Numbered from the stretch's first letter, positions 4,833 through 61,166 are shown. The stretch is 64,000 nt of DNA from Candidatus Omnitrophota bacterium (GCA_041663425.1 JBAYMS010000005.1:531-64530); one strand, 5' to 3'. A program made the numbers and translations. The notes: generated by a model from the sequence alone, not told the origin.

Positions 4833-6239
4833 CTATGACTCACTTTCTTCTTCTAAAACTTTAATGAACGCATCAATGACTTCAGGATTAAATTGAAGTC
4901 CTCTATTAGCTTTCAGCTGCAATATAGCGTCTGCTTTGGTTATGCTCTTATGCCTGTAAGCCCTGTTAGAAACCATCGCATCATAAGAATCTGCGGCGGC
5001 AACTATGGCCGTCGACACGCTTATCTCACTCCCTTTAAGCCCATCGGGATAACCATTGCCGTCATAACGTTCATGATGACCCCTGACCATAGCTAATAAC
5101 TCCAGGTCCAAAGATACCGGCTTTAATATCTCCTCGCCTATTTCCGGATGTTTTTTTATAGCATACCAGTCTTCATCTGTAAGAACAGATTTTTTACTGA
5201 GTATCATTTCCTGTATGCCCAGCTTACCTATGTCATGCAAAAGCGCAGCCTCGCGCAGCAGCTCTATCTTGCCCTCCGCAATCCCCATCTTACGCGCTAT
5301 CTTCACGGTATATTCAGCCACCCTGTCGGAATGGCCGCGCGTATACGGATCTCTTGCTTCGAGAACTCTTATAAGCGACTGGACCGCGCGGTAAAAATAA
5401 TTTAGAAGCGCCTCTCTTGCTTTATGAAGATCGGATCCCATCTTATTAAATGAAGACGCAAGTTCACCGATCTCGTCTGAACTTTTAATATCAACTTTAT
5501 ATTTAAGGTCCCCTGACGATATATGGCGCGTTCCTGCGACAAGTTTCTTTATCGGCGATACGACCCGCCTGGCTATGCCGAGCCCGAATATTGCCGATAC
5601 TAAAACCCCCAATACGAAGATAATGGCAGCGCGCCTCCTGGTCTCTTTTTCTACACTATAAACATCATCGGCTGCCATATCTATACCCAGGATCGCGATC
5701 ACATTACCGTTTTTGTCACGTATAGGAGAATACCCGGACAGAAAAACACCCCACCTGTCAGATATCATCTTCTTATCAGCTGTAGGCCCGTTAAAAGCTT
5801 TGAGCAGTTCCGAGTAAGATTTTGCATTATAAATCTCACCAGGAGAGGCAGAAGCAACAGCCGTCTCATAATGGCCCGGGTGTATATCCATAATAAACTG
5901 CAGGATACCGTCCTGCTCTGTCTTTTTCAGTATATACATATAAGCAAGCGACGGCATGACCTCTTTCATCTTCAGCAATTCAGCCTCTACAGCTTTATAC
6001 TGCGGGCTCGCCAATCCATCTTTATTTAAAGGTATCCCGATAAGATTTTCCTGATCAATAGTCATGGCAACGGCCTGGGCGACTGTCGTCAATTTGTCTC
6101 TCAACTGATCAAATTGTGATTTAAGAGAATATTCGTATATGAGCAGGTTGCTCACGGCGGCAGAAAGGCACATCAGCAGTATGAAAGCTGCCGCCACTTT
6201 TACTCCGAAACTTCTGAATATCTTAAAAGATTTATTCAT
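4833..6239 (-). CDS. Membrane-anchored HD-GYP domain c-di-GMP phosphodiesterase with a periplasmic sensor and a HAMP linker
   Basis: 468 aa. It has an N-terminal TM, a ~170 aa periplasmic segment, a second TM plus HAMP-like region, and a C-terminal HD-GYP signature (LLHDIGKLGI ... HHERYDGNGYPDGLKG). It is the last gene of the long operon and its start overlaps the stop of the upstream cupin gene. Confidence 0.85.
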   Translation of the reverse strand: MNKSFKIFRSFGVKVAAAFILLMCLSAAVSNLLIYEYSLKSQFDQLRDKLTTVAQAVAMTIDQENLIGIPLNKDGLASPQYKAVEAELLKMKEVMPSLAYMYILKKTEQDGILQFIMDIHPGHYETAVASASPGEIYNAKSYSELLKAFNGPTADKKMISDRWGVFLSGYSPIRDKNGNVIAILGIDMAADDVYSVEKETRRRAAIIFVLGVLVSAIFGLGIARRVVSPIKKLVAGTRHISSGDLKYKVDIKSSDEIGELASSFNKMGSDLHKAREALLNYFYRAVQSLIRVLEARDPYTRGHSDRVAEYTVKIARKMGIAEGKIELLREAALLHDIGKLGIQEMILSKKSVLTDEDWYAIKKHPEIGEEILKPVSLDLELLAMVRGHHERYDGNGYPDGLKGSEISVSTAIVAAADSYDAMVSNRAYRHKSITKADAILQLKANRGLQFNPEVIDAFIKVLEEESES

Positions 6240-6771
6240 TTAAGTTAAGTTTTGCTAAAACCTTTTTATTAAAATCGCCGGAATCCGGCGAACCCTCAGA
6301 CGGCGCCCACCCGGCAAATTTCTTTTCGATATTTTTATCATAGGGCCCTTCCTTTGCCTCATACAGGACGGATTCGGGTTTCAGGACAATGAAAGAATGC
6401 CACTTACGGGGAGGTATCTCTACAGCTTTTGCGCCAGCCTCGGGATCAAGGACAACATGATCTATTATTTTGCCGGCATCATCAAATTCTACCACCACAA
6501 CCCTTCCCTTCAATATCACAAAGACTTCAACCTTGTCGGGGTTTTCATGCTTATGCGGCTGTATATATGTCCCCACTTCTGCGGCATTAAGCATCCGCTG
6601 AAATATCGCGGAGTCGGAGGAGTGAAAATTATAGTTAGTCCTCTTCCTGGGCGAAACTTTCGCTTTCTCCGAAACATTTTTTATGAGGTCTTCAGTTATC
6701 TTTATCATTTTATTAATTATATCATTTACCCGCTGCGCTGACCACTCTCTTACAATAATAATTGGCTGCAA
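6232..6771 (-). CDS. WbuC-family cupin-fold metalloprotein
   Basis: 179 aa. Cupin motif 1 is YIQPHKHENPDKVEVFVILKG (HxH...E). This is typical of WbuC-like cupins found in O-antigen/LPS clusters. Confidence 0.55.
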   Translation of the reverse strand: MQPIIIVREWSAQRVNDIINKMIKITEDLIKNVSEKAKVSPRKRTNYNFHSSDSAIFQRMLNAAEVGTYIQPHKHENPDKVEVFVILKGRVVVVEFDDAGKIIDHVVLDPEAGAKAVEIPPRKWHSFIVLKPESVLYEAKEGPYDKNIEKKFAGWAPSEGSPDSGDFNKKVLAKLNLNE

Positions 6772-6793: not shown

Positions 6794-7396
6794 TTACTCC
6801 AGAGAATCTATCCGCTGCATTATCAGCTTCGTGGCCTCTTTGGCACCGGCCCATATCGGTTCGGTATCATATGATCCGTCGAGCAAGATGGGCGTACCTA
6901 TGGAAACGCCTATCTTAGCGCCAAATTTGACGCGGCACTTTCTGATATTTAAAGCTTCGTCAGTGCCTGTTATCTTTACCGGTAAAATTTTAGTTCCGGT
7001 CCTCAATGCCGCTAATGCCGCGCCAGGTTTGCCTTCTATAGGATGCCCGGTCTCATTCCTGCCCCCCTCGGGGAAAAATAGCACCATCCTGCCGTTTGCG
7101 ATCCTTCTGCATGCCTCCACTATCGCCATAGGCCCTGTAGCGGCAATACAATCCCCGACAAATGCCCTGGCAATAAATCTTAGGAATACATTGAGGCCGG
7201 TCATAAAAGCCATCTCCCGCGGAAATATTGTGGTTAAAAGATAGGGGTCTATGTGACCTATATGGCTGGACGCGATCACGCACGCACCTTCTTTTGGTAT
7301 GTTTGAAGCACCTTTTACAGTTATTTTAAAAAAAAATAACCTGAAGACCAGCCTTATCATGTTTTGATAAATTTTATAAAAAAATGGGCGTATCAT
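6794..7396 (-). CDS. Lysophospholipid acyltransferase (PlsC/AGPAT family)
   Basis: 200 aa. HX4D-type motif (SSHIGHID) and FPEGGR motif are characteristic of 1-acyl-glycerol-3-phosphate acyltransferase-like enzymes. Confidence 0.7.
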   Translation of the reverse strand: MIRPFFYKIYQNMIRLVFRLFFFKITVKGASNIPKEGACVIASSHIGHIDPYLLTTIFPREMAFMTGLNVFLRFIARAFVGDCIAATGPMAIVEACRRIANGRMVLFFPEGGRNETGHPIEGKPGAALAALRTGTKILPVKITGTDEALNIRKCRVKFGAKIGVSIGTPILLDGSYDTEPIWAGAKEATKLIMQRIDSLE

Positions 7397-7397
7397 A

Positions 7398-8609
7398 TCA
7401 GAAATTTATTGAATCAGAATAGACTTCATCCACGGTTATCATCTTAAGGCATTTATTATCACGGCATACGGAATTCCTGTGATTATACGCTGAGAAACAG
7501 GGGCTGCAGGCCAATTTTTTATACAGCACCTTTTTATTTTCCTTAAGCGGAGCGTAAAGGACCGGCGTCTCCGGGCCAAAAAGCACCACCATGTTAACAG
7601 CTGTAAGAGAAGCCAGGTTAGCGGCACCGCTGTCATGACTTATAAATAGCGAAGCAATACTGCACAATGCTATCATTTCCTTAACCGAGGTCCGGCCTAT
7701 CATATTTATAAAACGCTTATTGCCGGATAAATAATCTATGCCATCCGCGCCGTCTTCTGATTCTGCGCTTATGCCTGTAAAAACTACAAATGTGTTTTCG
7801 TCCTTAAGCATCCTGCCGGCAAGTTCGATATAATTTTCGACCGGCCACCTGCGCAGAAATAAAAACTCACCTATGCCGGGATTTAAAACTATTATGCGGT
7901 TATTTTTATTTATCGCACTGTTAATTTTTTTCAGCTTGTCCCATATACCTGTAATATCTTCCTGTGTTAATTTCATTAAGGGCACTGTTGTTTCAGTGCC
8001 ACCCAGCGCTGTTTTCAGGTAAGGCACTTCGTACGCGGTTTTGATGGACCGAACGAGCGCTAAAAAGTTCTTACTTATATGGCTATACGGATTATACATG
8101 ACATTATGCGTGTAGATATCCGCACGGCTAAGGCCTTCGAGGGTAAATTTATGAAACCCAACCTTTGTCTTCGCACCGCTGAAAAACGCCAATATGCTTG
8201 TGAACCTGGAGAACAGCTCCATGTCTATTACGGTATCTATCTTCTCCCGCCTTATCCTACGTAAACTTCTTATGGTATCAAAAAGCAGAATTAAAATATT
8301 ATCCGTTCGTATCGTTATAACATTTTCTTTAGGTATAACATCGAGAGTATAAACACTTTCGACATTATCTTTAAATATCCAGAAATAGAGCTGTGCATCC
8401 GGATAGCTTTCCCTGGCCTCCTTCATGGCCGAATAGGCCAGAATGGCTGCCCCCATTTCAGAAAGTTCTAAAAATATTATTTTTTTTGGTTCTGGGTTAA
8501 TTTTTACTCTGGGAGAGAAAAATCTTTGCATCCGGCTAAACAAAGATAACGGATAACATATCAACGGCCCTATCCAGCAATCCAGTGCAAAAGCAACGCA
8601 TGGCTTCAT
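7398..8609 (-). CDS. Glycosyltransferase family 9 (ADP-heptose:LPS heptosyltransferase-like)
   Basis: 403 aa. The N-terminal region resembles the RfaF/WaaC EL-SEMGAA-YSAMKEARESYPDAQLYF block. The C-terminal HDSGAANLAS motif resembles the conserved GNDSGPMHLA box of GT9 enzymes. Confidence 0.6.
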   Translation of the reverse strand: MKPCVAFALDCWIGPLICYPLSLFSRMQRFFSPRVKINPEPKKIIFLELSEMGAAILAYSAMKEARESYPDAQLYFWIFKDNVESVYTLDVIPKENVITIRTDNILILLFDTIRSLRRIRREKIDTVIDMELFSRFTSILAFFSGAKTKVGFHKFTLEGLSRADIYTHNVMYNPYSHISKNFLALVRSIKTAYEVPYLKTALGGTETTVPLMKLTQEDITGIWDKLKKINSAINKNNRIIVLNPGIGEFLFLRRWPVENYIELAGRMLKDENTFVVFTGISAESEDGADGIDYLSGNKRFINMIGRTSVKEMIALCSIASLFISHDSGAANLASLTAVNMVVLFGPETPVLYAPLKENKKVLYKKLACSPCFSAYNHRNSVCRDNKCLKMITVDEVYSDSINF

Positions 8610-10741
8610 CAGAAGCTTCCTTTAACAGACGCTATGCCATTTCGCGCTTTTTCATTGTTCGGATCCACATCCAGCATCTTCTGCCAGTATCTAAGAGCCT
8701 TCTCCTTCATACCCATCTTTAGATATATCACTGCGAGGTTGTTATATGCATCTAAAAATTTAGGGTCTGATTTTGCAGCTTTCTCAAATGAAGCTATAGC
8801 GTCATCGACGAGCCCTTTTTTATAATACGCATTGCCCAGGTTATAATAACCGCCTGCAAAATCAGGATTCGCCTCTACAGCCTTTTTAAGCTCATTTATA
8901 GCGTCATCATAACGGCCCATCTTTACATAAATATTTGAAAGATTGTTCCTGGCCTTATAATTAGACGGTTTTTCTTTCAAAAGATCTTTATAGGTGTTTA
9001 TAGCCGCGTCATAATCACCCTTAGCCATATATGTATTTGCGAGATTATACCAGGCATCCATGTAGTTTGCTTTTATTTGAAGAGCTTTTTTAAACTGCTT
9101 TATCGCATCATCATAACGGCCCATCTTGAAATAAATATTACCGAGATTATTATTGGCCTGGAGATGGAACGGCTGTTTATCCAGAAATATCCCATATTCT
9201 TTTATAGCATCTTCATAGCGGCCCATCTTGAGATAGGAATTAGCCACGTTAAAATGACTGGTCAAAACATCGGGGTTTAATTTTTCGGATTTCCTGGTCT
9301 CTTCAATAGCTTTATCATATAGCCCTTTTTCAAAATATATATTGCCGAGGCTTAAATGCGCATCCGCATAATCAGGGGCAATAGATATGGCTGTTGTGAA
9401 TTGCTCTTCTGCTTTATCGTAAAGTTTCAGATCCTGATACGCTGTGCCTAAACTGACATGAGAGCGCGCTGTAGCCGGGGGGCGCCTCACCCTTTCCTCC
9501 CAAAATACAACGGGATTCCTCCAATCCATGTTACGCGTTACAGTTCTCCAACCATAGAAAATAAAAATAACTGAAGCAGCGGCAATAGCTATTTGCTGGT
9601 ATTTTTTATTCGCGTAAATCCTCAAGATCACAGCGCTAAGCAGCATAGAAAATCCGGCGACGGCGGGATAGAGAAGTCTTTCGGCGACGGGCGTATACGG
9701 ATGCGCTATAGTAGGCCCGACGGAAAGGAATATCCATGCCATTGCAAATACAAAGATCCGGTCCTGCTTAAATTTACGGATAACAAACAGAATAAGCGCT
9801 GCAATAGCTATAAATGAAAATAAAGCCTGCGATTCCAGCATCGAATGCGACATACGAAAAACATATTCAGCAGAAAGCTGTATAGGGAACAATAGCAGCT
9901 TCAGGTAATGTAAGATGTATTGGCTTCCCATCATTACAAGATACCCGAGGTCTGTATTAAGACGTGTTTTAAATAGCACTGCAGGAGAGGCAAATTTAAC
10001 AAGGCTTATATACTCGTAAAAGATAGCGATTGCAACATATCCGGCGTATATAAAAATCGCATTTTTGATCGCATTGTTTAATTTGCTCTTATCCACGCCG
10101 CCTTTCCATGTACATACGTCTATAACTACCAATAACAACACTGCACCGACGGCAAGTTCTCTTGTAAATATAGCAAGAAAGCAGAATAATAAAGAACAGG
10201 CATAAAATACGGTTCTCTTTATGCCTTCAGAGGTTTTCACTTTCAGATAAAAAATGATCGCGGTGAAAAACAAAGCGCAGAAAATAGCGCTGCCCCTGAA
10301 CGCAGGGCTATTCACCACCTCAGTCTGGACGGGGTGGGCAATAAAAAACAAGCCGGATAATGCGGCAACTAAACGCGCCGGAAGCTTAGCGTCCAGCATC
10401 GGCGTAATAAGTAACACTAGAAAATAAAGCGCTATTCCGGCCAGCACATGGAAAAAGATATTCGTCAGATGATATCCGACGGGGTTAAATTTCCAGAAAT
10501 GGTAATCGATTATGAATGTAAGTGTAGTCAGGGGACGATAAGAAAATTCGCCGGAGCCGGCGTAATACTCTTTTGTAAAAAGATACTTTATATTACTGAG
10601 CTTTGTAAGGAATACGTTATTTTTTACTAGTAGGTCGTCATCGTAAACGAATTGGTTCTGTAATGAATTGGCATATATGGCAAATCCTATTACCACTATC
10701 AGGGCTATGGAGATAAAAGATATTTTAAAGCTGCTATTCAT
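8609..10741 (-). CDS. TMTC-like GT-C fold glycosyltransferase (multi-TM, DD motif) fused to C-terminal TPR repeats
   Basis: 710 aa. There are about 11-13 N-terminal TM helices with a first-loop FVYDDD motif and a YRPLT motif as in PMT/TMTC-type GT-C enzymes. The C-terminal ~300 aa is made of about 8 TPR units (repeated AxxxYxxAxxxxP / YNLGNxY patterns). Confidence 0.6.
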   Translation of the reverse strand: MNSSFKISFISIALIVVIGFAIYANSLQNQFVYDDDLLVKNNVFLTKLSNIKYLFTKEYYAGSGEFSYRPLTTLTFIIDYHFWKFNPVGYHLTNIFFHVLAGIALYFLVLLITPMLDAKLPARLVAALSGLFFIAHPVQTEVVNSPAFRGSAIFCALFFTAIIFYLKVKTSEGIKRTVFYACSLLFCFLAIFTRELAVGAVLLLVVIDVCTWKGGVDKSKLNNAIKNAIFIYAGYVAIAIFYEYISLVKFASPAVLFKTRLNTDLGYLVMMGSQYILHYLKLLLFPIQLSAEYVFRMSHSMLESQALFSFIAIAALILFVIRKFKQDRIFVFAMAWIFLSVGPTIAHPYTPVAERLLYPAVAGFSMLLSAVILRIYANKKYQQIAIAAASVIFIFYGWRTVTRNMDWRNPVVFWEERVRRPPATARSHVSLGTAYQDLKLYDKAEEQFTTAISIAPDYADAHLSLGNIYFEKGLYDKAIEETRKSEKLNPDVLTSHFNVANSYLKMGRYEDAIKEYGIFLDKQPFHLQANNNLGNIYFKMGRYDDAIKQFKKALQIKANYMDAWYNLANTYMAKGDYDAAINTYKDLLKEKPSNYKARNNLSNIYVKMGRYDDAINELKKAVEANPDFAGGYYNLGNAYYKKGLVDDAIASFEKAAKSDPKFLDAYNNLAVIYLKMGMKEKALRYWQKMLDVDPNNEKARNGIASVKGSF

Positions 10742-10750
10742 ATCCCCTCT

Positions 10751-11959
10751 TCAGGTTAATGCCTCGCTCAAGGCATCTGCTATTATTGTAGCTTCACGAT
10801 CTGTCATATCGTCATATAACGGCAATTGGATGGAAGATTCATAAACACCTTTAACCACAGGATATTCCTCTTCCAAGTTCAGATACAAAGCGCAGTTGTC
10901 GGTTATTTCGCCTTTTACGCCGGAGTCAATACCCCTTTTCACCAGCTTTCTGCGGATATCCTCTATTGCGCCGTTATAACTACTTAATCTTATCACAAAA
11001 AAATAGAATATTCTATCTCCCTGCACAGAGATATCCTGAAATGATATATTATCGCCAAGCCTTTTTATAAGACGATCCGCGGCATTGTTTCTTAGTTTAT
11101 TTTTATACTCAAGATCCCCCAGTTGTCTTAGCCCTAAAAAAGCCTGCAGATTGGTAAAACGCGATTTTTTAGCACGCGCTGATCTGCGCGTAGACAGATA
11201 AAATCTGCTTATGATGCCGGAAGTTTTTTTGCCAGCCAGGAATCTTATGAGGACAGGATATGCGGGTGAATTCATGAGGAGATCTTCTGCGTATGAAAAT
11301 AATATTTTGGTTAGAATGCCATAACTTTTATAGGGATATGATTCAAGGGCGGATTTGATATGTTTTATGATACTCTCATTATTGGTGGTTGCCATACCGC
11401 CGCCGAATGTGTTTATGCCTTTGATCGTTTCGAAACTAAAAAATGCGGCGTCGCCAATAGAACCTACATGTTTTCCGTCAATCGTTGCGCCTAAAGCATG
11501 CGCGCAATCCTCTATAACTGCCATGCCGTACTTTTTTGCAATGCTTGTTATCTTTTCCATATCACATGGGACTCCAAAAAGATGGGTCGCTATTATGACT
11601 CTGCTTTTAGGAGTAATGTGAGCGGATATCAGCTGCGGATCCATATTAAATGATTTTTTCTCTACATCGACCAGTTTGGGCACCAGCCCTTTGGCTATAA
11701 CAAGATCTACCAGATCCTTCAGTGTATATGCCGGCATTATAACTTCATCGCCTCGCTCAAGCTTCAGCGCGTCAAGAATAAGTGATAATGCATCACGCCC
11801 TGAACAGGTTGATACAGCAAACTTCGTGCCTACATATTCCGCAAATTTGTTTTCGAACAATGCTATATCCTGGCCTTTTGCCGTCTGGCCAGTAAATATC
11901 AGGCTGAATACATCTCTAAATTCACCCTTATAGTATCGCGGCTTTCGGCGTCTTATCAT
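10751..11959 (-). CDS. DegT/DnrJ/EryC1/StrS-family PLP-dependent sugar aminotransferase
   Basis: 402 aa. The FSFETIKGINTFGGGMATT block matches the conserved FSFHxxKxxxxGEGG Schiff-base lysine region of DegT-family enzymes. The N-terminal region has a fold-type I layout. Confidence 0.85.
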   Translation of the reverse strand: MIRRRKPRYYKGEFRDVFSLIFTGQTAKGQDIALFENKFAEYVGTKFAVSTCSGRDALSLILDALKLERGDEVIMPAYTLKDLVDLVIAKGLVPKLVDVEKKSFNMDPQLISAHITPKSRVIIATHLFGVPCDMEKITSIAKKYGMAVIEDCAHALGATIDGKHVGSIGDAAFFSFETIKGINTFGGGMATTNNESIIKHIKSALESYPYKSYGILTKILFSYAEDLLMNSPAYPVLIRFLAGKKTSGIISRFYLSTRRSARAKKSRFTNLQAFLGLRQLGDLEYKNKLRNNAADRLIKRLGDNISFQDISVQGDRIFYFFVIRLSSYNGAIEDIRRKLVKRGIDSGVKGEITDNCALYLNLEEEYPVVKGVYESSIQLPLYDDMTDREATIIADALSEALT

Positions 11960-13050
11960 ATTTTTAAACCTGTTATTTTTTGAAGCGGTATATTTAGACT
12001 AAAACGATCCATCCAGCAATCGCATCTTGCGCCAGACCTGAACGCACAGCGCAGATCCTGCATTTCAGCACTGTGCCACAGATCTATGAGATTTGTATCA
12101 TTCAGATTGCCTATAGGCACATTGGGCGACATGGTCAATTCATGGCATGGCAATAAATTGCCCGACACATCTGCACCTCCGAAGAACGTGCCGGCAAAAC
12201 ATAAAAATTTATCTTTCAGTTTTTCGGGATGGAATATAAATGACGGTATATTGCGGTGATAAACTGTATTCAGAATTTTATATTTTCTCAGTAAGCCCTC
12301 AAAGCACTTCCTGAATGCAGGCTCATCTTCTGCGCTGAACCTCATGTATTCGGGAACGTCATAAGACAGTTCTGTGTTTTTATAAATAGGCTTAAACGAT
12401 ATAGCATCAACTTTTTCTCTAAAATGGCCGGCAAAATCCTCCACAAAAAGATAATTCTGCTTATTGATAAGATATCGTGCCTCTATAAACACCGGCGATC
12501 TTGTAGAAAAATTGCGTATCGCTTTTATACCATTTTCTATTTTGTCAAACAATCCGTCCCGGCCTCTTATTTTATCAACGGTTTCCGCATCGGGGCCATC
12601 TATGCTTATAGTGATAAAATCCACCCCGCCCCTTATCATCGATTCCGCTTTTTCCTCCAGAAGAAAGCCGTTCGTCGAAACATTCACTATCATGCCCGAG
12701 GATTTGGCTTCCCGTATAACATCATCCAGGTCTTTGCATAATAACGGCTCTCCTCCGCATAAGCTCAGGAACCATACGCCGCTTTCAGCTATATTTTTTA
12801 TAATTTTTATTTTTTGTCTGAGGTCCGGCTCTTTTTTAATTTGCGCCGGCACCTGCCCGGCTTTCCAAAATCCGCAAAAAGGGCACCTGAGATTACAGCT
12901 TGCTGCTATATCCCATACAAAAAAAAGAGGGCCTCTACGCGGCGTCTTTTGCGTCATAGCTACAAGGTAGTTGTCTGTAAAAGTGAGGAGTAGTCTGGGG
13001 ATAGACTTGATATTCCTGCTTAAGGCATATCTCAGCTTGTTTTTATTCAA
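11956..13050 (-). CDS. Radical SAM enzyme with C-terminal SPASM/twitch-like Cys-rich domain
   Basis: 364 aa. It has CNLRCPFCGFW (CX3CX2C), a GGEPLL motif, and C-terminal cysteines (CFAGTFFGG...C...RCAFRSGARCDC). The start overlaps the DegT stop by 4 nt and its own stop overlaps the upstream flavoprotein gene. Confidence 0.85.
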   Translation of the reverse strand: MNKNKLRYALSRNIKSIPRLLLTFTDNYLVAMTQKTPRRGPLFFVWDIAASCNLRCPFCGFWKAGQVPAQIKKEPDLRQKIKIIKNIAESGVWFLSLCGGEPLLCKDLDDVIREAKSSGMIVNVSTNGFLLEEKAESMIRGGVDFITISIDGPDAETVDKIRGRDGLFDKIENGIKAIRNFSTRSPVFIEARYLINKQNYLFVEDFAGHFREKVDAISFKPIYKNTELSYDVPEYMRFSAEDEPAFRKCFEGLLRKYKILNTVYHRNIPSFIFHPEKLKDKFLCFAGTFFGGADVSGNLLPCHELTMSPNVPIGNLNDTNLIDLWHSAEMQDLRCAFRSGARCDCWMDRFSLNIPLQKITGLKI

Positions 13051-13718
13051 TTTTCCGCCTGGAATGTAATTCCTTTAAGCTTAAACATTATTTCGTTTTT
13101 AAAGATATCGAAATTATGTTTAAAGACATACATGCCGACAGGGATTATCGGTTTAGAGATAAGTTCTTCGGCTCTTTTCGGCACCGCTTCGCCTCGCGCG
13201 ATAGCTTTAGCGGCCACAGAGAAAGCTTTTTTTATGTTCAAACCTAGGATCGTGAGAACTAAACCGCGGCCATACATCAACATAGGTCCCATCCCTATAG
13301 CAAAAACTCCTAGACAGGAAAAGCCAGATTCTTTTGCAAATTGCCTATAAATATTTACGGCCGAATTATTCTGCCTTGCCTCAGGAAAACCGCAATTTGA
13401 TATGGCGAACATACCTTTGCTGTTATTTATCTTGGACATATTTTTTTTCAAACTGTCCATGGCGCGTATTACAAAAGACGGCGGACCGCCGTTATTTATC
13501 GGAGAAGAAAATACAACATTCTCATGGCCATTAATTGCACATAGTAAGTTCTCTTCCCACTTTTCAGAATTCATCAGGGCAGCAAGATTAATAATGGTAG
13601 ATTCTACATTATTACCGGCAAGTGCTTTTGCCAACATATCTCCCGCTATCCAGGAAGCGCACTTATGACCCTGCTTGGGAGAACTTATTAAAATAAGGAT
13701 TTTTCTTTTAGTATTCAT
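13047..13718 (-). CDS. Flavodoxin-like fold NAD(P)H-dependent FMN reductase family protein
   Basis: 223 aa. The N-terminal KILILISSPKQG is typical of flavodoxin-like FMN reductases (KIxxIxGSxR). It overlaps its neighbours by 4 nt on both sides. Confidence 0.5.
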   Translation of the reverse strand: MNTKRKILILISSPKQGHKCASWIAGDMLAKALAGNNVESTIINLAALMNSEKWEENLLCAINGHENVVFSSPINNGGPPSFVIRAMDSLKKNMSKINNSKGMFAISNCGFPEARQNNSAVNIYRQFAKESGFSCLGVFAIGMGPMLMYGRGLVLTILGLNIKKAFSVAAKAIARGEAVPKRAEELISKPIIPVGMYVFKHNFDIFKNEIMFKLKGITFQAEN

Positions 13719-14296
13719 TTATGAACACCCGCCCGCATTAAAGCATCATCTACCATGCCTTTTATTACGTCCTCGGTGCAGTTACTACCCAAAACGGTCT
13801 TTACAATACACTTGCCATGAAAATTTATCGAGTTATGGCTGACGAGTTTTTTAAAAACGTCTTCGAGCTCTTTGTTTTCGGCAGCCATTGATCCAAAAAC
13901 TATAACTTTGGATTTTTTATTATTTCTACGGCGCAGATGGATGTCGCCGTCTATTTTTATAAACAAAGGAAACAATATCACTATCAGCCTGTCGAGCAGT
14001 TTTTTAAGATGCCAGGAGTATCCGCCGTAAGTAATAGGCGTCAGAGATATCCACAAATCACTCTCATCGGCTGCGCGGACTATTTCTTTGCCTGCATCAC
14101 TTATAACACATAAGCCCGGCGTCTTATACCAGCAGTCAAGACAGCCCAGGCAGTGATCTATTTTTATATCACGGAGAGTAAAAAGCTTCACGTCATAATT
14201 GCTGTAATTGAGAGTTTTTTTGATAACTTCGAGCGTGGTTTTTAAAGCAGTATCATTTTCGGTAGAACCATCTAATAGCAATATTCTCATAATCAC
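13715..14296 (-). CDS. Iron-sulfur flavoprotein (Isf-like), flavodoxin fold with compact 4Fe-4S motif
   Basis: 193 aa. The N-terminal ILLLDGS flavodoxin-like start is followed by HCLGCLDCWYKTPGLC, which is CX2CX2CX7C. That is the compact cluster motif of Methanosarcina-type iron-sulfur flavoproteins. Confidence 0.6.
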   Translation of the reverse strand: MIMRILLLDGSTENDTALKTTLEVIKKTLNYSNYDVKLFTLRDIKIDHCLGCLDCWYKTPGLCVISDAGKEIVRAADESDLWISLTPITYGGYSWHLKKLLDRLIVILFPLFIKIDGDIHLRRRNNKKSKVIVFGSMAAENKELEDVFKKLVSHNSINFHGKCIVKTVLGSNCTEDVIKGMVDDALMRAGVHK

Positions 14297-22702: not shown

Positions 22703-23557
22703 TTATTTTTCCTGCAGTTTGGCAAGTTCACTGAAAGTAATGAGTTTGATACCGTTATCGGCTATGGCTTTCTTAATGCGGCGGCTTGTTAATGCGGCAA
22801 GGTCAGTTTCGCAATTTCGGTGAAATACGCACCTATCCAAAACTTCAGCGCTTATAAATCCGGGATGTGCTACAAGCTCTGTAACACCGTCGGGTAGTTC
22901 GGTCAGCATCTGCATTAATATATCTTCTCTGATGTTTCCCGAATCGAATAATCCGAGAAAATTATCAGTGTGAAGGACGGATGCCTTATTAAGCGCACGT
23001 ATCATATTTTTATCAAAATATCCCAGGATAATTTTTTTAAATAATTTGTTCGCGTTATACGGATAAGCAAATCTGTCTCTATGCAGATATCTTATAGCGG
23101 GGATGCTATATTCTTTTGCTAGTTGTATGAAGATATCTAATATTCCGGGCAGCATGTGGATATGCTGATGACTACTAAGGCTTGTTATGGGCAGACCGGA
23201 TTCTTTCAGCCTTTCGACCTGGCTCTTCAATTCTATATATATATGCGTTGAGCTTATTTTGCCTAAAAGAAAAGGTAAAAGAAAACCCGCATAGCCTTTA
23301 TGAAATCTTCCGTCCCTGGTGACAAGGCTTGCTACCTCGGAAGGATCGCTCACGGGGGCAGTTTCAGTAAGAGCAAGATGCGCGCTTATCTCTTTTAATT
23401 TAGCGACCCTAAGAAGCGCCATAGCATCGTAAAAGGCCGCGCCGGAAGAGAGAACATTAACGGCTGTGGTTATCCCCGCCTCACAGCTTTTCATGATGCC
23501 GCGGTTTATACTATCGGACAGCCCCAGGTCATCAGCGCTAACTATAAGATACTTCAT
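22703..23557 (-). CDS. YdjC/ChbG/HpnK-family carbohydrate deacetylase (NaxD/LgmC-like)
   Basis: 284 aa. The N-terminal LIVSADDLGLSDSINRGI and later HLAL/HQHIH motifs are typical of the YdjC-like deacetylase superfamily. It is co-transcribed with the GT2 and GT-C genes (4-nt overlaps). Confidence 0.7.
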   Translation of the reverse strand: MKYLIVSADDLGLSDSINRGIMKSCEAGITTAVNVLSSGAAFYDAMALLRVAKLKEISAHLALTETAPVSDPSEVASLVTRDGRFHKGYAGFLLPFLLGKISSTHIYIELKSQVERLKESGLPITSLSSHQHIHMLPGILDIFIQLAKEYSIPAIRYLHRDRFAYPYNANKLFKKIILGYFDKNMIRALNKASVLHTDNFLGLFDSGNIREDILMQMLTELPDGVTELVAHPGFISAEVLDRCVFHRNCETDLAALTSRRIKKAIADNGIKLITFSELAKLQEK

Positions 23558-24246
23558 TTCGAAAACCTATACTTCAGCATATCCCAGAATGTCCTCGCGA
23601 CTACGCTCATTCTCGATATCGTTGATTCTCCTTTTGTGCGCAGTTCAAATATTAGCCCATACTGTTTTATAGCAAACCCTCTCCTCGCCGCCTCGGCAAA
23701 TATTTCGACATCTATGAAAGGACTTCTTGATTTCAGATCGAGCCCTTCTATAACTTTTCTCTTATATATTTTAAGACCGGAATTTATATCCCTTATTTTA
23801 AGACCGAAAAGAATCCGAACCAGGAAATTGTAACCTTTCGACATTATAATACGCTTAAGACTAGCGTCTTTTAAGACCAGGCTGTATGCCGTAACGACAT
23901 CCGCGCCATTAAGCATATCGAGAGCGCCTTTTATATCCTTTTCTCTGGCAGGGAGATCTGAATCAGTATATATCACAACTCCCTTGGAAGAATTTTTCAG
24001 GCCTTCTTTCAAAGCACCGCCGAATTTTGTATTAACTTTAAGCCGTACGGATTTTATATGCTTATCAGCTGAGGCTAATTTATCAACAATGTCACCGCTT
24101 CCGTCGGTAGAAGCATCGTCAACTATCACTATTTCGTAGTCATCCGCTATCTCCGACGCCAGAGCTGTCGCGCGCCTTAAGGTCTCCTCAATATTCTCAG
24201 CCTCATTGAACATCGGAAATACGAAAGATATGCTATGTTTTATCAT
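23554..24246 (-). CDS. GT2 polyprenyl-phosphate sugar transferase (DPM1/ArnC/LgmA-like)
   Basis: 230 aa. The motifs SFVFPMFNEAENI, YEIVIVDDASTDGS and YTDSDL are GT-A fold DXD-type GT2 signatures of dolichol/undecaprenyl-phosphate glycosyl synthases. Confidence 0.8.
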   Translation of the reverse strand: MIKHSISFVFPMFNEAENIEETLRRATALASEIADDYEIVIVDDASTDGSGDIVDKLASADKHIKSVRLKVNTKFGGALKEGLKNSSKGVVIYTDSDLPAREKDIKGALDMLNGADVVTAYSLVLKDASLKRIIMSKGYNFLVRILFGLKIRDINSGLKIYKRKVIEGLDLKSRSPFIDVEIFAEAARRGFAIKQYGLIFELRTKGESTISRMSVVARTFWDMLKYRFSK

Positions 24247-25913
24247 TTAACAAATTCTCTTTTCAGGATATAGACGCCATCGTCCGGTTCGACATTGGTT
24301 ACTATCGACCTTTTCCCTACGGTATATAACAGGTAGGTCGGCTTAACATATTCATTATTTATCGCCGGATCATACAGCCCTCTGTGGTTTTTATCCTTTA
24401 TTACAGCCCAGACCCGTTTATCCGAATTTAAAAAATTTACCATAATGTGGTGTTTATCCAGGTCTACCGGAAATTTATCCGCGTAAAACGCAAGCCCGGG
24501 AAGATAGTTGCTCTGTGAACCGAGCGCCTCGCCCTCTTTGATCAGCAGGCGCAATTTGCCGCTCACTTCTTTGCTCGATTCGTAGCGCTCAACATCCGGC
24601 AATACGTAAAAATCAAGCGGCAGTATCAGTGCTGCCAAAGACACTACAATTAGACAAAAAGACGCGAAATGTTTTTTCTTTAAAAATAAAACTGCCGAGG
24701 CAATAAATCCAAAGACTAACACAAGACTCGAGAAGACAACTCCTTTTAATATTTCGGGCATGTCGATCTTTACAAATATAGACAAACCTACAGCACCCGC
24801 TATGATCGCTATTGCCAATAAATAATAAGATACCTTCACCCCTGCAGCGACGGATCCGGATATTTTGCCTGAATTTAAAAATTCATTCCATAGCGCGCCG
24901 ACTATAAGCGCGAGCGATATGAAAGTCGGGAAAACATACGTCGGTAATTTTGTGCGGGACGCTGAGAAAAACAGGAAAATCACAAAGAACCAAACCAGCG
25001 CAAAAACAGAGCCTTTTGCTTCTACCCGCCCATCGCCCCTGGCCCCCTGTCTATTTTTGAATATATACCAGAAACCAAATGGTAAAAATATGCTCCATGG
25101 GAAAAATCCTGCCATAATAACCGGGATATTATAATAAAATTGAGAGCCGATCTTGTGCTCCGACTGCATAAACCTCGTAACATTATGGAATCCGAAGAAA
25201 GCATCGATAAATTCCATACCGTGAAGCTTATAAGCCGTAAAATACCATGGCCCGGCAATGACCACGAATATCAGAACGCACCATCCAAATGGTATCTTCT
25301 TTAAACTGCCGAGATCTCCAACTATAGCCAGAAATATAATAAATGCCAGGACGGGCAGCGCAATTGCTATTGGCCCTTTCGCTAGGACCGCGAAAGCAAA
25401 AGCGGCGGATGATAATATGTAAAAGGATTTCTTATTTTTCAGATACCCATAGAAGAAAAACAGGACGCCAAGCAGCATAAATGCCGTCAATGTCATGTCG
25501 GTAATGCATGCTCTGGAAAGCACTATATATTCTACGTTTGTGGCCAATATCACCGCTGATAAAAAACCTGCTTTTTTACCGAAGAGCACAGACCCAAGAA
25601 AATACATAGCTATAACACCTATCAGGCCAAACAATGCTGATGGCAGCCTCGCAGACATTTCATTCACCCCGAATATTTTATATGAAATTTCTATCAGCCA
25701 GTATATCAGGATAGGTTTTTCAAACTGCGGTTTGCCGTAAAGATACGGAGTCGTCCAGTCACCCTTATTGACCATCTCTTTTGCCGTCTGGGCATAGAAA
25801 GTCTCATCGGGGTCGGTAAGCGCCATATCCCCTAATTTAAATAAAAACAGATATGCGCATAATATTACTAATAACGTTACGGCAAGGTATGGTTTTTTGA
25901 GGATTTTATCCAT
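24243..25913 (-). CDS. ArnT/PMT-like GT-C membrane glycosyltransferase (GT83/GT39 family)
   Basis: 556 aa with about 12-13 TM helices. The first periplasmic loop has DPDETFYAQTAKEM (the DE motif of ArnT/PMT enzymes). The N-terminal layout is typical of lipid A / protein glycosyl transferases that use polyprenyl-P-sugar donors. Confidence 0.7.
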   Translation of the reverse strand: MDKILKKPYLAVTLLVILCAYLFLFKLGDMALTDPDETFYAQTAKEMVNKGDWTTPYLYGKPQFEKPILIYWLIEISYKIFGVNEMSARLPSALFGLIGVIAMYFLGSVLFGKKAGFLSAVILATNVEYIVLSRACITDMTLTAFMLLGVLFFFYGYLKNKKSFYILSSAAFAFAVLAKGPIAIALPVLAFIIFLAIVGDLGSLKKIPFGWCVLIFVVIAGPWYFTAYKLHGMEFIDAFFGFHNVTRFMQSEHKIGSQFYYNIPVIMAGFFPWSIFLPFGFWYIFKNRQGARGDGRVEAKGSVFALVWFFVIFLFFSASRTKLPTYVFPTFISLALIVGALWNEFLNSGKISGSVAAGVKVSYYLLAIAIIAGAVGLSIFVKIDMPEILKGVVFSSLVLVFGFIASAVLFLKKKHFASFCLIVVSLAALILPLDFYVLPDVERYESSKEVSGKLRLLIKEGEALGSQSNYLPGLAFYADKFPVDLDKHHIMVNFLNSDKRVWAVIKDKNHRGLYDPAINNEYVKPTYLLYTVGKRSIVTNVEPDDGVYILKREFVK

Positions 25914-30452: not shown

Positions 30453-31442
30453 TCACAGATATCTATTATTTTTTAAATATAAGGCGTAATCCTTAACAGA
30501 TTCGCTGATCGTCGCAAAACTCTTTTCATACCCGGATTTTCTCAGCTTCCCCATCTCCGCCCGGGTAAAATACTGGTATTTCTCTCTTAACGTTTCCGGC
30601 ATCTCTATATATTTAACGCAAGGTTTTTTATTAACGGCGGAAAACATAGCAGCGGCTAGCTCATTCCAGCTATGAGCAACCCCGCTTCCTAAATTAAATA
30701 TCCCGGTTTTCCCGGGGTTACTCAAAAAGAAAAATAAAACATCGACGGCATCTTTCACATATATAAAATCTCTTTTTTGCTCGCCGTCTTTACAATCTCT
30801 CCTATATGACTTAAACAGTTTTATGCATCCATGATCGGTAACTTCTTTAAATTTTTTGCACACTACACTCATCATATCGCCTTTATGATATTCATTGGGC
30901 CCGAATACGTTAAAAAATTTAACGCCAGTAGCTTCCTTATCCAAATCCAAACGATTATTTAATAACCATAAGTCAAAAAGCTGCTTCGAATACCCATACA
31001 TATTAAGAGGTTTCAGCTTCAGGATGGTTTCGACATCATCCCGATAACCAAACTCACCATCACCATATGTTGCGGCGGATGAGGCATATATGAATTTGAC
31101 TCTATGATCTATTGCCCATATAGCGAGGGCTTTGGAATATTCGTAATTGTTTTTTACAAAGTACGCAGCATCGGTAAAAGTGGTTGAACTGCAGGCGCCA
31201 AGGTGCACTATCGTTTTTATACCGGAAATCTTACCGGAATGAAGCAGTCCTAAAAAATCTTCTTTTTGTATATAATCGGATATCTTTTTGCCGGAGAGAT
31301 TATGCCATTTTTCTGAAGTGCCGAGATTGTCTACTACTATAATATCATTTATGCCTTCTTTATTTAGCTTCCACAAAAAACAACTCCCTATGAAACCCGC
31401 GCCGCCCGTCACAACTATAGTATTTTTTTTCAATGCCCACAT
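30453..31442 (-). CDS. hldD: ADP-L-glycero-D-manno-heptose 6-epimerase
   Basis: 329 aa. It has VTGGAGFIGS, VVDNL, HLGACSSTT and YASSAATYG, matching RfaD/HldD nearly motif for motif. Confidence 0.85.
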   Translation of the reverse strand: MWALKKNTIVVTGGAGFIGSCFLWKLNKEGINDIIVVDNLGTSEKWHNLSGKKISDYIQKEDFLGLLHSGKISGIKTIVHLGACSSTTFTDAAYFVKNNYEYSKALAIWAIDHRVKFIYASSAATYGDGEFGYRDDVETILKLKPLNMYGYSKQLFDLWLLNNRLDLDKEATGVKFFNVFGPNEYHKGDMMSVVCKKFKEVTDHGCIKLFKSYRRDCKDGEQKRDFIYVKDAVDVLFFFLSNPGKTGIFNLGSGVAHSWNELAAAMFSAVNKKPCVKYIEMPETLREKYQYFTRAEMGKLRKSGYEKSFATISESVKDYALYLKNNRYL

Positions 31443-60686: not shown

Positions 60687-61166
60687 CTACACTATCTTCT
60701 GCAGCGATGACGCTACGAAATCGTTATCCTGATTTTTCCTATCGGGAATATTTATCTCTTCTATCTTTGAAGCCCCCTTTGCCTCAAGGACAGCCCTTAT
60801 ATTTTTAAAACATTTTTTTACACCCATACCACTTCCGGAAGTCAGCAGCACTATGACCCGCTTATTCTTCAGGCCTGTAAGATTTTCGAGAAAAGTATTT
60901 ATTGCAGGCACCGGGGCAAACGCCCATACGGGCGAACCGATTATCACGAGATCGTAAGAGGATGCGTCAAACTTTACACCCTGCCCCAGGATCGCCCTCG
61001 AGCCTTTTTGAGCTGCCAGGCACTGACCTATAAAACCTTTTATTTCATTGGTAGGTTTAAGCCTCTGGACATGGACCTCGCCTTTAGATTCCATTATTTT
61101 TCCAAACATTCTGGATATTCTGTCGGTATGACCGCTATAAGAATAATATGTTATAAGAGTTTTCAT
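60687..61166 (-). CDS. Flavodoxin-family protein
   Basis: 159 aa. The N-terminal TLITYYSYSGHTDRI is an FMN phosphate-binding loop (T/SxTGxT-like). Confidence 0.6.
   Translation of the reverse strand: MKTLITYYSYSGHTDRISRMFGKIMESKGEVHVQRLKPTNEIKGFIGQCLAAQKGSRAILGQGVKFDASSYDLVIIGSPVWAFAPVPAINTFLENLTGLKNKRVIVLLTSGSGMGVKKCFKNIRAVLEAKGASKIEEINIPDRKNQDNDFVASSLQKIV

Follow-up and report, generated by a model that had tools for sequence, protein, structure and literature searches.

The closest described counterparts of the locus studied here combine a radical SAM enzyme and a PLP aminotransferase, as in BlsE with BlsH (blasticidin S) and MilG with MilD (mildiomycin). BlsE is a radical 1,2-diol dehydratase, and it was characterized as a typical single-cluster enzyme (PMC3715490). 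MilG, a homologue of BlsE, has been proposed to make a 4'-keto-3'-deoxy sugar, which the PLP aminotransferase MilD would then aminate. In the butirosin pathway, BtrN, a twitch radical SAM dehydrogenase with a single auxiliary cluster, is likewise paired with DegT-family enzymes, BtrS and BtrR. Desosamine biosynthesis follows the opposite order, with the aminotransferase DesI acting before DesII; the latter is larger and is not known to have the twitch-type four-cysteine cluster. The Arn pathway shares the general logic, passing a keto sugar through a DegT-type transaminase to a polyprenyl-phosphate carrier and then to a GT-C transferase. Finally, the E1/E3 system of 3,6-dideoxyhexose biosynthesis (RfbH/AscC with AscD) also combines a DegT-family enzyme with an iron-sulfur flavoprotein donor. 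In E1 a histidine replaces the PLP lysine, and the enzyme carries its own [2Fe-2S] cluster.

We analysed a 64,000-nt stretch of DNA from a Candidatus Omnitrophota bacterium, hereafter the window. According to ORF calling, positions 10751-14296 hold four translationally coupled genes, all on the minus strand (Table 1). The original prediction had described them as encoding an Isf-like protein, a flavodoxin-like protein, a radical SAM protein and a DegT aminotransferase, joined by 4-nt overlaps. ORFs, motifs and Pfam matches agree with this description, and overlaps of 4 nt were read directly at all three junctions (ATGA, TTGA and ATGA). No intergenic gap in the operon exceeds ~25 nt. The true start of the first gene is probably the ATG at 14290, giving a protein of 191 aa, because gene callers on identical contigs and the alignment of homologues point there. 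For the radical SAM gene, the N-terminal 40 aa that follow the TTG start are kept in homologues, and gene callers agree on the length.

Table 1. Position and supporting features of the genes of the four-gene unit and of other genes in the window.
Feature	Position	Strand	Length or match
Iron-sulfur-flavoprotein-like FMN reductase	13715-14296	minus	193 aa from GTG at 14296
Flavodoxin-fold protein, FMN-reductase type	13047-13718	minus	223 aa
Radical SAM enzyme, predicted twitch-type auxiliary-cluster domain	11956-13050	minus	364 aa, TTG start
DegT/DnrJ/EryC1/StrS-family PLP aminotransferase, Lys type	10751-11959	minus	402 aa
TPR-bearing membrane protein	8609-10741	minus	710 aa; TPR families match strongly
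GT9-family glycosyltransferase, heptosyltransferase-like	7398-8609	minus	Pfam Glyco_transf_9, 76.9 bits
Small PlsC-type acyltransferase	6794-7396	minus	Pfam Acyltransferase, 60.1 bits
WbuC-family cupin	6232-6771	minus	TIGR04366, 149.8 bits (cut-off 42); Pfam DUF6016, 52 bits
ArnT-like, ArnC-like and deacetylase genes	22703-25913
ADP-heptose 6-epimerase	30453-31442		TIGR02197, 392 bits (cut-off 275)
Separate flavodoxin gene	60687-61166

The real unit at this locus is the radical SAM-DegT pair. We compared 20 independent related loci, from Omnitrophota and two DPANN archaea, across which radical SAM identity was 33-64%. The DegT gene lies no more than 100 nt from the radical SAM gene in 18 of these loci, and all 20 have it on the same strand at a distance of 5 kb or less, so the linkage that had been predicted for relatives was borne out by the neighbourhood comparison. 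The pair is often translationally coupled and occurs 1:1 across distant lineages, with the gene order reversed in the two DPANN archaea. The presence of other radical SAM genes varies from locus to locus: additional enzymes of this kind, B12-dependent ones included, are encoded in about half of the related clusters. Gene content, motifs, folds and this conserved linkage are what was observed at the locus. From them and the relatives above, we propose, with a probability of roughly 55%, that the pair produces an amino sugar, probably of the amino-deoxy kind, destined for a cell-envelope glycoconjugate, by the mechanism set out below.

The radical SAM protein belongs to the superfamily by its CX3CX2C motif, its GGE motif and a match to Radical_SAM PF04055 (84.3 bits; cut-off 29.5). 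The first of these is CNLRCPFC at residues 52-59, of which C52-X3-C56-X2-C59 is invariant in the family alignment; the CGGEPL motif, with invariant E101, and an STNG motif are also kept. The predicted model suggests a partial TIM-barrel and matches solved radical SAM enzymes. At the C-terminus, C284, C302 and C345 are invariant among 23 family members, of which 90% or more also keep C343. The auxiliary-cluster cysteines of the original prediction are thus present, but its SPASM label was not retained. SPASM PF13186 gave just a partial match of 28.2 bits that covered profile positions 11-66, and a full SPASM domain, with seven cysteines and two auxiliary clusters, was rejected. As four cysteines rather than seven are conserved, the auxiliary domain is, judging from the alignment, of the twitch type with one four-cysteine cluster. 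BtrN was the only solved protein matched by the C-terminal 90 aa, through its twitch domain. Two BtrN cysteines, probably the cluster ligands C169 and C188, line up with C284 and C302.

By fold, the top match was BlsE. The closest solved relatives of the enzyme, BlsE by fold and BtrN by C-terminal domain, are sugar or cyclitol enzymes that both feed aminotransferases, which supports the original prediction on this point. The likeness to BlsE has clear bounds: the two proteins share just 19% identity, and their sequences match in the common radical SAM core alone. Moreover, four auxiliary cysteines are conserved here whereas BlsE was described as a single-cluster enzyme (PMC3715490). Nor does the locus share the setting of BlsE and MilG, having neither a cytosylglucuronic acid (CGA) synthase nor a nucleoside-antibiotic context; instead, the pair is found with envelope glycosyltransferases in uncultured Omnitrophota and DPANN. 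On the basis of the predicted structure, the radical SAM protein may nevertheless work like BlsE. Its conserved residues R192, K220, Y264, R266, E304 and R334, identified in the family alignment, would suit an anionic, phosphate-bearing substrate. No NCBIfam maturase model came near its cut-off for this protein. Assignment to the anSME or RiPP maturase class was rejected, given the one auxiliary cluster and no sulfatase or precursor conserved in 20 loci.

The partner protein is a DegT-family member by its match to PF01041 (243.8 bits), its PLP lysine in place of histidine and its conserved aspartate. The lysine, K180 in SFETIK, never varies and falls at the position of the PLP lysine in perosamine synthetase; in the subfamily alignment, E150 and D151 are likewise invariant. 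In keeping this lysine the protein differs from E1, and RfbH scored below the aminotransferases. None of the curated equivalogs PseC, ArnB, LegC, WecE, DesI and RfbH reached its cut-off. The best NCBIfam matches were PseC, ArnB (the second-best curated match) and LegC, all far below their cut-offs, and the best curated relatives, which include perosamine synthetase in addition to these three, are C4-aminotransferases. All 55 solved relatives act on sugars or cyclitols, BtrR-type enzymes among them (2c81, E 2e-30). The protein falls in a subfamily of its own, marked by the N-terminus MIRRRxPRFYKGE and by a conserved hydrophobic insert of ~40 aa in the region of about residues 205-262. This insert, like the extended N-terminus of the radical SAM protein, could point to a lipid-linked or non-sugar substrate.

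The window also contains ArnT-like, ArnC-like and deacetylase genes. The ArnT- and ArnC-like genes are 9 kb from the module, with housekeeping genes between. We rejected an Arn (L-Ara4N) lipid A pathway: no ArnA-like dehydrogenase, decarboxylase or formyltransferase was found in the window, and the ArnB-, ArnC- and ArnT-like scores of 157, 76 and 181 bits fall well short of the respective equivalog cut-offs (631, 529 and 567). Compared with that pathway, the radical SAM enzyme here would replace the NAD-dependent step.

Glycosyltransferases are the dominant neighbours of the pair. Related loci hold the TPR-bearing GT-C-like protein, GT9, GT2, PMT_2, YfhO, MBOAT, PlsC-type acyltransferase and B12-radical SAM genes and, as annotated by family matches, the neighbourhoods of the pair are envelope-glycan or glycoconjugate machinery. 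The TPR-bearing membrane protein, homologues of which occur in 11/20 related loci, has a polytopic N-terminal part of ~420 aa and at least eight TPR repeats in its C-terminal part. Its N-terminal domain gave no Pfam or PDB sequence match. The invariant D34-D35 after the first helix suggests that this domain is a GT-C-like or TMTC-like glycosyltransferase. Its N-terminal motifs presumably resemble those of TMTC proteins, and TMTC_DUF1736 matched weakly (E 0.015) in two of eight homologues. The start of the GT9 gene overlaps the stop of the TPR protein gene by 1 nt, and the GT9 gene is kept after the latter in L002, L005, L054 and L055. Its best NCBIfam match was heptosyltransferase II (80.6 bits, below the cut-off of 134.6). 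The PlsC-type acyltransferase, with homologues in L002, L044, L054 and L055, possibly acylates the amino sugar or its lipid acceptor. The WbuC cupin is confined, among the related loci, to the window's own lineage; its family, as annotated at NCBI, comes from O-antigen and amino-sugar clusters. Nucleotidyltransferase, UDP-glucose dehydrogenase and other sugar-activating genes were neither conserved beside the pair nor present in the window. The GT9 gene in the same operon and the heptose epimerase elsewhere in the window, both named in the original prediction, were recovered (Glyco_transf_9 and TIGR02197), but the LPS-core operon that it had built on them was not established: the GT9 and GT-C-like enzymes could act on lipid A/core, on a different glycolipid or on a protein.

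The two proteins encoded upstream of the pair are predicted redox proteins. The first is iron-sulfur-flavoprotein-like, with predicted Fe-S and FMN content: it has the motif CX2CX2CX7C (C49-X2-C52-X2-C55-X7-C63), of which C49, C55 and C63 are invariant in homologues and C52 is present in 3/4, and it matched Pfam FMN_red (44.4 bits; cut-off 24). A sequence search found no solved relative. The second matched FMN_red at only 21.5 bits, below the cut-off of 24; PF03358 is carried by three of its five homologues. Its family is very rare (only 6 proteins in a 5.8-billion-protein database). The protein carries an SSPKQG loop, together with an ISNCGxPE motif that is invariant. A Foldseek search with its AF2 model (pLDDT 80) returned azoreductase, NQO, WrbA and flavodoxin with E-values of 1.6e-6 to 1e-4 and TM-scores of only 0.45-0.6. 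The model therefore points to a flavodoxin/azoreductase fold and putative FMN binding. Unlike E3, which is of the ferredoxin-NADP-reductase type, the reductase at this locus is an FMN_red/flavodoxin-type protein.

The flavodoxin-fold gene always lies directly downstream of the iron-sulfur-flavoprotein-like gene. The reductase pair occurs upstream of the module in one subclade only, which comprises L001 and L054 as well as the window (radical SAM identity to the window, 62-64%). The earlier claim that these proteins are dedicated reductants was borne out in part: they are coupled to the module in these lineages, but the pair is missing from most related loci and also occurs without the module. 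Within this subclade, the reductase pair probably delivers low-potential electrons to the radical SAM enzyme. At somewhat under even odds, it is instead an autonomous redox unit that came to stand at the operon head in one lineage and is not the radical SAM reductant. In L052/L053 the same coupled two-gene unit adjoins an unrelated giant protein of 2365 aa, with neither a radical SAM nor a DegT gene, and the pair is missing from 17/20 related loci; both facts, together with the separate flavodoxin gene in the window, favour autonomy. Against it stand the 4-nt overlap between the pair and the radical SAM gene and the retention of the pair upstream of the module in three lineages, in one of which a B12-radical SAM gene is inserted between pair and module.

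Three other readings of the radical SAM-DegT pair were weighed. If the order were that of DesI/DesII, the DegT enzyme would aminate a keto sugar made by a conventional SDR encoded elsewhere in the genome, and the radical SAM enzyme, as a radical deaminase (lyase), would then convert the amino sugar to a deoxy-keto sugar. We consider this unlikely: DesII ranks well below BlsE, with a marginal profile match (E 2e-4), and the clusters show no conserved 4,6-dehydratase that could provide the substrate, nor any additional aminotransferase or reductase for handling the product. The radical SAM enzyme could also tailor a sugar without feeding DegT, as a twitch-type epimerase or a C-C or C-X bond former that modifies the same building block of the glycan either before it is aminated or afterwards. 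HygY and NeoN are twitch-type radical SAM epimerases of amino sugars, and the extra radical SAM genes in about half of the clusters, some of them B12-dependent, show that radical tailoring is extensive there. The tight 1:1 adjacency of the two genes across lineages nevertheless fits consecutive steps better, and the closest structure is that of a keto-forming enzyme, which makes this reading improbable too.

A non-sugar substrate has a low probability, whether it is a lipid that receives an amino group on its head group or chain, or a peptide or protein matured in the manner of a RiPP or of an anSME target. The earlier observation that no precursor peptide or sulfatase gene lies nearby was upheld: Pfam families typical of sulfatases or peptide maturases were absent from the scanned window ORFs of at least 150 aa (nearly all of those on the coding strand), and neither a sulfatase nor a precursor-peptide-sized ORF is conserved near the pair in the 20 loci, an FGE-domain gene occurring in one (L007). 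Furthermore, one auxiliary cluster is predicted here, versus two in anSME and most RiPP maturases, and both the sugar and cyclitol specificity of the solved DegT relatives and the dominance of glycosyltransferases in the neighbourhood argue against such substrates.

The preferred reading thus remains keto-sugar formation followed by transamination, as in the original prediction; it is well supported by the conserved linkage, the glycan neighbours and the resemblance to BlsE and BtrN. The proposed substrate class, reaction type, step order, electron route and acceptor are drawn by analogy from relatives. The twitch-domain radical SAM enzyme would reductively cleave SAM, with electrons supplied in this subclade by the Isf-like protein and its flavodoxin-fold partner. 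The resulting 5'-deoxyadenosyl radical would attack a nucleotide- or polyprenyl-phosphate-linked sugar and remove hydrogen from one of its carbinol carbons. The substrate radical could then lose the neighbouring hydroxyl and be reduced, yielding a deoxy-keto sugar (1,2-diol dehydration of the BlsE/AprD4 type), or it could be oxidized by the auxiliary [4Fe-4S] cluster, which would accept the electron, yielding a keto sugar (BtrN-type dehydrogenation). Hydroxyl oxidation, the radical SAM reaction originally foreseen, is therefore one option, but the closest structure is that of a 1,2-diol dehydratase and we lean slightly towards the dehydration route. O2-independence, also advanced as a rationale, does not discriminate, as the usual NAD-dependent keto-sugar-forming enzymes are equally O2-independent. 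The coupled Lys-type DegT enzyme would next transaminate the carbonyl. Perhaps once the PlsC-type enzyme has acylated it and the WbuC cupin has epimerised or isomerised it, the amino sugar would be installed on an envelope acceptor by the GT9 enzyme and the TPR-bearing GT-C-like membrane protein. If this proposal is correct, these organisms would make an unusual amino sugar by a type of chemistry that has been described mostly in antibiotic biosynthesis.

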